A DNA stretch of 64,000 bases from assembly GCA_048938105.1 (NCBI GenBank), contig JBHLMN010000017.1, positions 64,001 to 128,000 of the forward strand, given 5' to 3'. Shown here one piece after another: positions 24,475 through 53,040 of the stretch. Both the position numbers and the translations under genes were made by a program. A model generated the notes under the pieces. The model saw only the letters and a list, made by a program, of their open reading frames with translations. It did not search any database and was not told the origin of the DNA. Position 1 is the stretch's first letter. Each line of letters starts with the position of its first letter. Source of the DNA: Promethearchaeota archaeon (GTDB lineage Archaea > Asgardarchaeota > Heimdallarchaeia > Hodarchaeales > Hodarchaeaceae).

Positions 24475-25101
24475 ATGAGTTTTTTCAATTCAATTCGTTC
24501 TAATCCTAATAAACCATTAAAATTAGTAGTTCTAGGCGAGGGAGGAGTGGGTAAGACGACAATTGCAAAGACTTTTGTCAATAACAGGTTTTACTCTGAA
24601 GCAACACAGACCATTGCTGTAGAATTCCATTCAAAGATTTTTTCAATAGGGATAGGTACTAACACAAAAATCCAAATCTGGGATCTAGGTGGACAAGAGC
24701 AATTTAAAAACATGAGAACTGTTTTCAGAAAATTCTGTGAAGGTGCGGATGGAGCTCTTCTGTGTTTTGATTTAACTGATATTGGATCTTTGTTTGCAAT
24801 TCCAGAATGGTTAGAATTCTTAGAAAACGATGCACAACGGTTCTTAATCGGGACAAAATATGATATTGCAATCTTTGAAGAACGAAACATCAATCTTGAA
24901 ACCTTTCAACAGAAATTTAATTGTGAATATTCCTTTAAATGTACAGCAAAAGATGTTAACTCAATAGAAAACATATTTAAACAGATTATAATCTCAATTA
25001 GAAATTACAAGGAAAAGCAGCTTGAGGGGTTATCAGAGAAAGTCATAGAGCGTCCTAAATGGATGGATTATATCCCAACATACCATAAAGAATTCGGATA
25101 A
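24475..25101 (+). CDS. Rab-like small GTPase
   Basis: G1 GEGGVGKT, G2 TIAVEF, G3 WDLGGQ, G4 GTKYD, G5 CTAK. No C-terminal cysteine motif. Confidence 0.9.
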   Translation: MSFFNSIRSNPNKPLKLVVLGEGGVGKTTIAKTFVNNRFYSEATQTIAVEFHSKIFSIGIGTNTKIQIWDLGGQEQFKNMRTVFRKFCEGADGALLCFDLTDIGSLFAIPEWLEFLENDAQRFLIGTKYDIAIFEERNINLETFQQKFNCEYSFKCTAKDVNSIENIFKQIIISIRNYKEKQLEGLSEKVIERPKWMDYIPTYHKEFG

Positions 25102-50892: not shown

Positions 50893-52263
50893 TCATCTGA
50901 GACTTATTTTCCAAATTGTACGTTTATTTTTCTCTTCAATCATTTCAGGTTCATCTAATGTAAGAGTTTTCAACATACCTATCAAAAATCCTTTTGTAAT
51001 TAAATTTGAGATTTCTTTAGGAAATCTTTCATCAGACCAATCTTTAAGAGTAACTATTATAGAATCTTCTTTCTGAATAACATTAGGTGAGTCTTGTTTT
51101 TCTATAGTTTCTGGTACAGAATATGTACCAATTAAGGATTCAATCCATGCGTTCTGCAAAAAATAAGAATACTCTTTTCCATACCTTACTGATCTTTCAA
51201 CAAGATCAGCTTTTGATTCAGCAAGTACTCTGGGATAAAAAATTAAATAAGAAAAATCATCAGCGATTAATCTAATTTGTTTCTCAAAATAATTTGTAAA
51301 ATCTTCAAATAATCTTTTTAGAACCATAGAGGGAAGAGAGAAAAAGAAAGCCTTAGAAAGGGCAATATTACTACTATCATCATTAATTGTAGTAAAATAG
51401 AATATTCCTTTGTCAAAATAATCAACGAAGTACTTTAAGCAAATATTGACATTTTCAACTAAATTAGCTCTTTTCTCGACGTCAAATTTATGAAGAAATA
51501 TTGATAAACGAGGCGGGGGATCATTAACACGTGAAGCAATTTCCCAAATATCTGTTAAGTAGTCTCTTGCTATTTGAAATAGCTCTCGATTTTGGATATC
51601 AATTACAAACACGATTGCTGCAATTCCTTTCCAACTTATGTCTCGTGAAATATACTCTTGACGAAAATTAGATTGTCCCCCAAAATCCTTTACTAAGAGC
51701 TTCTGTCGTAAAAAGTCCTCGAATTTAAGAGATGTCTCTATGCCTATAGTAGGTTTAATGTCTTTAATTTCTTCAGCTGACCATCTATCAAAAAAAACAT
51801 TTTTGATAGAAGTTTTACCAGCCAGAGCGAGGCCTACTAGTGCGACTTTTGAAGGAGGAGGAGCTTTTGAGATTCTTTTCGACTTCATATAGAATTTCTC
51901 TATAATCCGAACCAAATTTAACTGAAAAATCTTTTTCGTTTCATCTATTTCATTCTCTGCGAGAATTTGAGATGTTTCTAACGCTAATTCTTTAGTAAAT
52001 GGTTCTATTGATTGAAATGTCACTGATTCATCAAAAAGAAGACGAATGTGGAATTTTTTAAAAGGAATGAAAAATAGACATTTGTTTGAGAACATTATAT
52101 GTTGGATCTTAGATTTATTCTCGTTTCCCTTAGACATATTCTCAAGTGCATTAAATAAAATAGAAATATAATGGAAATTGACATACTCTTTTGAAGAGGG
52201 TTTATTTTCGTATCTGAATAATTCCACTTTATCAAAGTTATTAATTGTTGCCAGTCGAAGCAT
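50893..52263 (-). CDS. Rag/Arf-like small GTPase with N-terminal longin/roadblock-like and C-terminal V4R/Bet3-like extensions
   Basis: G1 GLALAGKTS, PTIG, G3 DFGGQ, G4 HKFD and G5 TTIND (Rag-type HKxD and TSIxD). About 135-aa N-terminal and about 140-aa C-terminal extra domains. Confidence 0.8.
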   Translation of the reverse strand: MLRLATINNFDKVELFRYENKPSSKEYVNFHYISILFNALENMSKGNENKSKIQHIMFSNKCLFFIPFKKFHIRLLFDESVTFQSIEPFTKELALETSQILAENEIDETKKIFQLNLVRIIEKFYMKSKRISKAPPPSKVALVGLALAGKTSIKNVFFDRWSAEEIKDIKPTIGIETSLKFEDFLRQKLLVKDFGGQSNFRQEYISRDISWKGIAAIVFVIDIQNRELFQIARDYLTDIWEIASRVNDPPPRLSIFLHKFDVEKRANLVENVNICLKYFVDYFDKGIFYFTTINDDSSNIALSKAFFFSLPSMVLKRLFEDFTNYFEKQIRLIADDFSYLIFYPRVLAESKADLVERSVRYGKEYSYFLQNAWIESLIGTYSVPETIEKQDSPNVIQKEDSIIVTLKDWSDERFPKEISNLITKGFLIGMLKTLTLDEPEMIEEKNKRTIWKISLR

Positions 52264-52458
52264 TCTAGAATCACTATTCCAGTCAAAGAATAAAATGCGA
52301 TTTTACTCCATAACCTAAACCTAGTATCACTAGTATAATGCTGCAATAATTTAAATATTAGCATTTATTTGACATTATTTTTCATATAGATTTTATATTA
52401 TCTCTTTTCAATGAAGTTAAAGATGCTAACATCTAGATATCGCTAATATTACACATTT

Positions 52459-53040
52459 TCATTTAATTGTATTTAGAATCGCAGAGATCTTAATCCAATA
52501 GTTCTTAAGATCTGGATGTTTTCCATTCTTGATTTGGCTAGATATTTGTTTCAATATATTCCTTAGCTCTAATGAATCTGAACAACTAATTTTAGGGGAA
52601 ATCAGAGCAATTAAGTATTTACATTGGCCTCCTCTTATTTCATCATCTTCAAAAAAGTCAAAAAAAATGAAACTATCGTGTTGGACATATTCTATTCTCA
52701 ACAAGAGATCTTGAGGAGCAATAGCGTCCGCATAACCATAAATAGCGACTGATGCTTGGAATAAATAATTTCCAATTGTTTCTATAGGAATAAAAGAAAT
52801 GTCCAATAAATGGGGGGGATAATTATCTTGAAGTGTCGGACCACTTTCTTCATCCCAGATTATCCAGAATAAAATTTGAGAATCTGTTTTATGTGATGAG
52901 AGAAATGAATTGTAACAACTTTGTGTCTCCTTATCAACGTTTTTAGCTTCTAAATGTGAATTATTCAACTTAGTAAATCTGCTAATATAAGATTTAAAGG
53001 TGGAAATGAGTCTTTTCAAGAAACTAACACCTTTATCCAT
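52459..53040 (-). CDS. Stand-alone uDENN/longin protein (FLCN/SMCR8/NPRL2-like)
   Basis: FWIIWDEESGPTLQDNYP (uDENN 'FdxxxGP') and FEDDEIRGGQCKYLIALI (FLCN-type DxxxRGxQxxY). Confidence 0.65.
   Translation of the reverse strand: MDKGVSFLKRLISTFKSYISRFTKLNNSHLEAKNVDKETQSCYNSFLSSHKTDSQILFWIIWDEESGPTLQDNYPPHLLDISFIPIETIGNYLFQASVAIYGYADAIAPQDLLLRIEYVQHDSFIFFDFFEDDEIRGGQCKYLIALISPKISCSDSLELRNILKQISSQIKNGKHPDLKNYWIKISAILNTIK

Follow-up and report, generated by a model that had tools for sequence, protein, structure and literature searches.

A pair of neighbouring genes, here called gene A and gene B, was analysed in a 64,000-nucleotide stretch of DNA from a Promethearchaeota archaeon (positions 64,001 to 128,000 of contig JBHLMN010000017.1; hereafter the window). 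Gene A encodes a small stand-alone longin-domain protein of the class found in eukaryotic GTPase-activating proteins (GAPs), and gene B, located downstream, encodes a GTPase with a Rag-like G domain. A check of the open reading frames of the window showed that both genes are intact, on the minus strand and co-oriented (Table 1). Gene A belongs to an Asgard family in which the longin domain normally follows a receiver (REC) domain. It has lost the REC domain and keeps the conserved motifs of the family, and the family as a whole shows a conserved gene linkage to Rag/Arf-like small GTPases. From the sequence, we favour with moderate confidence the reading that gene A is a stand-alone 'NPRL2-like' GAP-type longin that regulates the nucleotide state of gene B by binding to its G domain, preferably as a GAP acting through Arg136. 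Earlier publications already cover the longin class, its fusions to two-component domains and its GP/Arg motifs. New in the window is a receiver-less two-gene variant, with a three-domain GTPase (longin, Rag-like and probably V4R), of a widespread archaeal cassette.

Searched directly, gene A matches no family in Pfam or NCBIfam and no sequence in the PDB. The AlphaFold2 (AF2) model from the single sequence has a predicted local distance difference test score (pLDDT) of 46.6. The model built with a 71-sequence alignment, on which all statements on the fold are based, has a pLDDT of 88 and shows a longin domain. The strands (β1, residues 56–63; β2, 67–74; β3, 110–116; β4, 121–131; β5, 139–148) and the helices (α1, 86–101; α2, 153–171; α3, 178–189) follow the longin order exactly. 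G67-P68 opens β2. The C-terminus (residue 193) lies only four residues past α3, and no DENN domain follows the longin. In longin sheets β1 neighbours β5, and this topology suggests that the GP hairpin and the Arg136 loop lie on the same edge of the sheet.

In structural comparisons this model came closest to NPRL2/Npr2, Lst4, FLCN, C9orf72/SMCR8 and an Asgard longin. All of the top five PDB matches in a Foldseek search are chains of GATOR1/SEAC entries; 8adl_S is yeast Npr2, and the other four chains are probably NPRL2, judged by their length and the content of the entries. Lst4, DENND10, a Lokiarchaeota Roadblock-Longin protein and FLCN come next. Superposition with VIA-align on solved longins aligned 113–134 residues with Z scores of 9–14.5 (the Loki Roadblock-Longin protein 8yqg, 14.5; Lst4, 13.3; FLCN, 12.1–12.9; C9orf72, 11.4; DENND1B, 10.5; TRAPP/SNARE longins, ~9–10), with roadblocks at ~8. 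The ESM Atlas rows contain the Folliculin, SMCR8, C9orf72, NPR2 and Avl9 clusters together with Asgard longins, one of which is fused to a small GTPase, a likeness of fold only. The AF2 model, Foldseek, VIA-align and the Atlas together bear out the longin fold proposed in the initial annotation and firmly assign gene A to the GAP/uDENN class of longins (the FLCN/NPRL2/SMCR8/C9orf72 kind).

The WDEESGP motif and Arg136 are not chance features of the gene A sequence. Among 58 genome-derived family members the tryptophan, glycine and proline are each present in 57, and the arginine in 54. The corresponding figures for 71 cluster representatives are 70/71, 69/71 and 69/71, with the arginine present in 56 of 69. 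Thus, the arginine, predicted to act as a finger, is conserved in the homologues as anticipated, and it occupies the same loop as R164 of FLCN. The four genome-derived members that lack the loop arginine are L034, L035, L071 and L077. No small GTPase gene is found up to 8 kb from three of them (L034:6125-7030, L035:6037-6942 and L071:7492-8496); the fourth (L077:2818-4899), with an alignment gap at the arginine position, has a GTPase-like gene adjacent, the numbers being small for relating arginine-less members to their GTPase neighbours.

Sequence comparisons with the eukaryotic longins gave alignments in the expected places. The folliculin string cited in the initial annotation proved to be real: a 71-residue fragment matches residues 137-207 of folliculin chain 6ulg_L exactly, with its arginine at R164. 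The gapless match that had been proposed around this arginine is the best local register between the family profile and the fragment, with R136 on R164; however, it covers 19 columns with an E of 0.13 and is not significant alone. The alignment with a verified NPRL2 fragment (residues 9-86) spans β1-GP-β2-α1 with the GP on G20-P21 (E 0.0025) and stops short of R78. When the family profile was compared with all PDB sequences, C9orf72 aligned along the full length of the domain, WDxxxGP falling on WDNILGP (E 0.34). Arg136 is likely to be equivalent to the eukaryotic finger residue. A specific relationship to folliculin finds no support. Neither gene A, at E up to 1, nor any of 43 relatives matches the Pfam Folliculin family (PF11704), and NPRL2/Npr2, Lst4, C9orf72 and SMCR8 are about equally similar. 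The label 'Folliculin-like' is therefore narrower than the data warrant.

Two further GAP-type longins are encoded elsewhere in the same genome. A 449-aa protein (L002:622-1971, contig G000:C52, minus strand) carries an N-terminal longin with FDEEHGP and a loop ARG, and passes the Pfam Folliculin threshold (E 1.6e-6, 28.5 bits against a cut-off of 23.3). In an hhalign comparison with the gene A family profile (E 4e-8) the WD..GP motif falls on FDEEHGP and the arginine on the arginine. A phmmer search of the PDB with this protein found no FLCN chain. A Roadblock/LC7-like gene lies two genes away (L002:2528-3022), and the neighbourhood resembles the FLCN-like/LAMTOR-like neighbourhood reported by Liu et al. 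(bioRxiv 10.1101/2020.10.19.343400). The third GAP-type paralogue (L003:1147-1794, contig G000:C35, minus strand; 215 aa) has WDEQKGP and SQIRG, aligns with the gene A family with an hhalign E of 1.8e-8, and adjoins a gene for a large multi-pass membrane protein.

A word-indexed search of 5.8 billion proteins returned the public copy of gene A as the sole match, a 169-aa product starting from the TTG at codon 25. An exhaustive HMMER search with phmmer found 139 cluster representatives, 77 of them below an E of 1e-10. These are mostly ~295–300 aa long, with the gene A-like part at the C-terminus and a REC (Response_reg) domain at the N-terminus (E 1e-18 to 1e-26). The longin part of gene A (residues 51-193) matches the family with a best E of 1.7e-23. 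Homologues with E values of 1e-17 to 1e-23 include REC-longin, kinase-REC-longin and GAF-longin proteins and show the same W-D..G-P and loop-Arg pattern; the architectures of the family other than REC-longin are HisKA-HATPase-REC-longin hybrids, GAF-longin, DUF1638-longin and longin-TPR. In ten long relatives checked for a fused GTPase, the partner was REC, GAF, TPR or none detected, and never a GTPase. Out of 399 genomes of the phylum, the family profile finds members in 166, among them 124 of the 135 genomes that make up one family.

Gene A has no Response_reg match, and the 380 bp upstream contain no remnant of a REC domain. Its homologues align from residue 8–11 of gene A onward, starting at their own residues 97–117, and residues 8–50 of gene A align with the last REC helix and the REC-to-longin linker of the relatives. 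As similarity begins at residue 8–11, the ATG at 53040 is favoured as the start over the TTG of codon 25. Maximum-likelihood analysis of 57 domains grouped gene A with its own genus and family f17 with moderate support (93/76), on a terminal branch of 1.46 compared with a median of 0.22 (~6.6 times longer). Of the ten positions that are nearly invariant in the family, gene A keeps nine and has Leu in place of Met at the other. Two other relatives (P0011 and P0016), located on metagenome contigs of ~1 kb, are possibly REC-less if their gene starts are taken as given. Because the normal form of the family is a REC-longin protein in a histidine-kinase operon, whereas gene A is REC-less and long-branched, gene A is a derived, stripped-down descendant of the REC-longin proteins. 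The proposal of a minimal ancestral precursor is thus not borne out.

The proximity of the longin to a GTPase gene is not peculiar to the window. With these queries a single gene of each type, A and B, was found in the genome of the window, and the two are neighbours. Full-length orthologues of gene B were found in five congeners (G005, G010, G012, G014 and G020). The orthologue is 9 bp from a REC-longin gene and co-oriented with it in G010, 3.4 kb away in one operon in G005, and 1.8 kb away and convergent in G014. In G012 and G020 the B-type gene and the family member are on different short contigs, which places them outside the linkage count. A more distant B-like gene is 1.2 kb from a family member in G001. 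The operons of G010 and G005 contain, in addition, genes for a PAS-HisKA-HATPase kinase and for a Ras-like GTPase. Tandem pairs of genes for B-type three-domain Rag-like GTPases occur in two congeners (G005:C430:6420-9318 and G012:C485:1287-4097); they are reminiscent of the two-paralogue Rag/Gtr heterodimer, and the genome of the window has one such gene.

Across the phylum, 40 further loci were sampled. In 29 of them a small GTPase gene on the same strand is at most 4 kb away, and the nearest one is Rag/Arf-like in 25 of these 29. When eight of the Rag/Arf-like neighbours were sampled with Pfam, Gtr1_RagA came first in six and Arf in two. Of the ten loci without a GTPase, two are cut off by a contig edge on the side in question. 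As background, a genome of 2.3–5.9 Mb has 11–35 PF04670 matches, enough for about one in ten 16-kb windows, so that a linkage of ~70% was observed against ~10% expected, a strong pattern rather than a p-value. The most common order of the cassette is an ArsR-type helix-turn-helix (HTH) gene, a ~182-aa GTPase, a histidine kinase and the REC-longin gene. The adjacency of longin and GTPase seen in the window is thus conserved in the congeners and in the wider sample. A search of a literature library found no published description of a conserved longin operon with Rag/Arf-like GTPases. One metagenome-assembled genome has an extended cassette (L038:1795-8909) consisting of ArsR-HTH, an Arf/Rag-like GTPase, KaiB, a KaiC-like ATPase, a histidine kinase, a REC protein and a REC-longin protein, whose gene content suggests a possible input from clock proteins.

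The best Pfam family of gene B is Gtr1_RagA (E 1.7e-19, residues 139-304), with Arf second at 8.9e-9. Its best solved relatives are the Asgard GTP-binding protein 8zla, followed by RagA, Gtr1 and RagC/D. The HMMER alignment covers G1, the switch I threonine, DxxGQ and the Rag-type HKxD, and puts HKFD of gene B on HKMD of RagA/Gtr1 and on HKID of 8zla. The elements on which the initial annotation was built, namely WDEESGP, the Arg136 codon, HKFD and YFTTINDDSSNIALSK, were all found in place when the sequence was read. No Pfam match was found for the domains on either side of the G domain. The N-terminal domain (residues 1-135) resembles sedlin in the Atlas, with template modelling (TM) scores of 0.73 to a TRAPPC2-like protein, 0.68–0.71 to Thorarchaeota longin-GTPase fusions and 0.70 to a synaptobrevin longin, and it is not a close paralogue of the gene A family (hhalign E 0.1). 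For residues ~324–456 the Atlas rows include V4R, Bet3/TRAPPC6B and H-NOX-like proteins at a TM of ~0.5 and no roadblock, with a model pLDDT of 0.66. Gene B is the sole full-length match of its type in its own 5.85-Mb genome. Gene B is thus made up of a longin, a Rag-like G domain and, at the C-terminus, probably a V4R/Bet3-like domain. The Rag-like nature of the neighbour therefore holds for the G domain (Gtr1_RagA, HKxD), but the flanking domains appear to set the protein apart from a canonical Rag.

Table 1. Positions of genes A and B and of their domains and motifs in the window
Feature	Position	Strand	Description
Gene A	52459-53040	minus	193-aa stand-alone longin protein, REC-less member of the Asgard REC-longin family
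N-terminal region of gene A, residues 1-50	52891-53040	minus	Two helices, residues 2-35 and 37-48 (AF2 model)
Longin domain of gene A, residues 52-191	52468-52887	minus	β-β-α-β-β-β-α-α (AF2 model)
WDEESGP, residues 62-68 of gene A	52837-52857	minus	WD and GP motif, β1-β2 hairpin
DDEIRGGQCKYLIALI, residues 132-147 of gene A	52600-52647	minus	Stretch holding Arg136
Arg136 of gene A, codon AGA	52633-52635	minus	Candidate arginine finger, β4-β5 loop
A-B spacer	52264-52458		195 bp, AT-rich; gene B downstream of gene A
Gene B	50893-52263	minus	456-aa three-domain Rag-like GTPase
N-terminal domain of gene B, residues 1-135	51859-52263	minus	Sedlin/TRAPPC2-like longin (ESM Atlas)
G domain of gene B, residues 136-305	51349-51858	minus	Pfam and HMMER
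G1 GLALAGKTS of gene B	51808-51834	minus	Sequence read
G3 DFGGQ of gene B	51673-51687	minus	Sequence read
G4 HKFD of gene B	51481-51492	minus	Rag-type; sequence read
YFTTINDDSSNIALSK of gene B	51352-51399	minus	G5 region, Rag-like pattern; sequence read
C-terminal domain of gene B, residues 306-456	50893-51348	minus	Probably V4R/Bet3-like, weakly supported

The A-B pair is flanked on the other strand by a gene for a major facilitator superfamily (MFS)-type membrane protein downstream and by a 188-aa gene upstream. Since the flanking genes are unrelated and on the opposite strand, the pair stands alone. No terminator-like site was found on the minus strand of the spacer between the two genes, and a scan of the locus for sigma-70-type promoters gave a background level, this consensus not being applicable to archaea. 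A search of the whole window revealed no kinase or REC domain elsewhere. A gene for a Ras-like small GTPase is located 27 kb from the pair (24520-24909, plus strand); its product and the Ras-like GTPase encoded in the G010 cassette share 33% identity.

In the mechanism that these data suggest, the longin of the family would be the output domain of a two-component response regulator or phosphorelay and would act on the co-encoded Rag/Arf-like GTPase. In the relatives, the histidine kinase would set the activity of the longin through phosphorylation of the REC domain. Gene A, which has lost the REC domain but retains both linker helices together with the WD..GP hairpin and loop arginine, would bind the G domain of the downstream gene B and thereby control its nucleotide state. 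Arg136 would be inserted into the nucleotide pocket beside the GP hairpin and activate the GTPase, as in FLCN, NPRL2 and SMCR8. Without REC and kinase, the regulator encoded by gene A would be constitutive or set by its own expression. The fold of gene A, its family membership, the conservation of its motifs, the loss of the REC domain and the conserved linkage to genes for Rag/Arf-like GTPases are observed, whereas the physical binding of A to B, a GAP rather than a guanine nucleotide exchange factor (GEF) activity and the catalytic role of Arg136 are predictions from them. In a more specific and rather doubtful version of the mechanism, A and B would suffice by themselves as a GAP-GTPase switch independent of any kinase, in which the longin of A might pair with the N-terminal longin of B, as in FLCN-FNIP and NPRL2-NPRL3, and place Arg136 in the pocket of B.

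Several points weigh against gene A being a GAP for gene B. Most longin domains are GEFs or platforms rather than GAPs. The eukaryotic longin GAPs are heterodimers with extra domains; for gene A, the N-terminal longin of gene B or a second copy of gene A in a homodimer are candidate partners. The sequence links to the eukaryotic GAP longins are singly weak (C9orf72, E 0.34; FLCN, 0.13; NPRL2, 0.0025). With a 195-bp spacer between them, A and B may or may not be co-transcribed. Ras-like GTPases are also encoded in the cassette of relatives, and the true target could differ from the Rag-like protein. The linked loci come from related genomes and are not independent, so that the counts overstate the statistics. 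The long branch of gene A could reflect relaxed constraint after the loss of the REC domain.

Part of this evidence would fit gene A being a platform, a GEF, an effector or a localisation adaptor for the neighbouring GTPase, with the arginine and the GP motif serving binding or folding. The characterised longin and roadblock regulators are mostly GEFs or scaffolds (TRAPP, DENN, Mon1-Ccz1 and Ragulator), which appear in the fold list at Z 8–10.5, and the linkage to GTPases indicates a functional connection without its direction. However, the arginine is kept in 54 of the 58 members, and the GP hairpin and the β4-β5 loop arginine are found in GAP-type longins and are absent from the FNIP2, NPRL3, DENND, TRAPP and adaptin longins (PMC12290439), which makes such a role unlikely, though a serious contender. 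That gene A is instead a decaying leftover of a REC-longin gene, with its position beside gene B inherited from the ancestral operon, is improbable. Its open frame of 193 codons, the nine of ten nearly invariant positions kept, the model pLDDT of 88 and the two possibly REC-less relatives speak against decay, while the missing REC domain without an upstream remnant, the 64-kb window free of a kinase or REC, the terminal branch of 1.46 against a median of 0.22 and the single near-identical copy among 5.8 billion proteins are consistent with it. Foldseek also returned LOV/PAS matches (E 3e-3 to 2e-2), and the fusion partners of the family are sensory domains (such as GAF, REC and kinases) and TPR repeats rather than GTPases, as would be the case if the adjacency were coincidental and gene A acted on something other than a GTPase, for example as a generic dimerisation or ligand-binding module. 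However, the LOV/PAS alignments have a root mean square deviation of 9–20 Å compared with 2.4–2.8 Å for the longin matches, a same-strand GTPase is linked at 29 of 40 loci (~70% against ~10% expected), and A and B are both single-copy in the genome and adjacent. A coincidence is thus very improbable. The reading of gene A as a GAP-type longin acting on gene B remains the one that we favour.

Eukaryotes control Rag and Arf GTPases by the longin-domain GAP complexes GATOR1, folliculin and C9orf72-SMCR8. The conserved gene order in the archaea points to Rag/Arf-like GTPases as the partners of the longin and to histidine kinases as the upstream input. As the A-B pair needs no kinase or phosphorylation, it is the simplest construct for a direct test, consisting of a 193-aa and a 456-aa protein. 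If the GAP activity is true, arginine-finger longin GAPs predate eukaryotes; if it is false, the pair would call for caution in reading function from eukaryote-like domains. A self-sufficient A-B switch, if true, would be the simplest natural longin-GAP/Rag module and would give the first experimental answer on the class of GTPase served by Asgard GAP-type longins.

The eukaryotic longin GAPs and their clients are FLCN-FNIP (RagC/D), GATOR1 NPRL2-NPRL3 (RagA/B) and SMCR8-C9orf72 (Arf). Gene A shares with them the longin fold, the GP at the β1-β2 hairpin and the arginine in the β4-β5 loop, and a client of the Rag/Arf class is predicted for it. Unlike them, gene A carries neither a DENN nor any other domain after the longin and has no identified partner longin, its context lacks a lysosome, Ragulator and TOR, and its sequence similarity to them is marginal. 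The data lend no support to the nutrient-sensing role suggested in the initial annotation. MglB-MglA of Myxococcus and Thermus is similar to the A-B pair in that a small regulator of the roadblock/longin superfamily is encoded beside its small GTPase, and the Myxococcus system receives input from a receiver-domain protein. However, MglB is a roadblock GAP and not a longin (Z 8.1 to gene A), and it is not known to supply an arginine finger. Gene B resembles Rag/Gtr in its best Pfam family (Gtr1_RagA), the HKxD at G4 and the Rag-like pattern of the G5 region. In place of a C-terminal roadblock, a sedlin-like longin and a probable V4R/Bet3-like domain appear to flank its G domain, and it is a single gene in its genome, compared with the paralogue pair of Rag/Gtr. 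Asgard proteins in which a Rag-like G domain is joined to a longin, a roadblock or both have been described (Tran et al. 2024, PMC10933270).

The general idea of Asgard GAP-type longins in the initial annotation agrees with two earlier reports and, as such, had already been published. Asgard 'NPRL2-like longin' domains fused to two-component domains were reported by Liu et al. (bioRxiv 10.1101/2020.10.19.343400; Nature 2021). Judged by their description rather than by a comparison of sequences, they appear to be the same family as gene A. The accessible text of Liu et al. describes the fusions and no operon with Rag/Arf-like GTPases; in contrast to these two-component fusions, gene A has no REC domain and the 64-kb window no kinase. 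Asgard longins of the FLCN/SMCR8 type, with a GP motif before β2 and a nearby conserved arginine, were described in Traffic in 2025 (PMC12290439), where the GP motif was described as specific to GAP-type longins, and a common ancestry with the eukaryotic complexes, and possibly a common GAP activity, was proposed. A single chain carries WD, GP and Arg in gene A; in the CSW complex, C9orf72 carries the WD and SMCR8 the Arg (PMC12290439). Compared with the longins of that study, gene A and its 43 relatives miss the Pfam Folliculin family, which the 449-aa paralogue of the same genome matches. The partner GTPase of the Asgard GAP-type longins, Arf-related or Rag, was left open there (PMC12290439), whereas the gene context of the A-B pair names a Rag-like partner.

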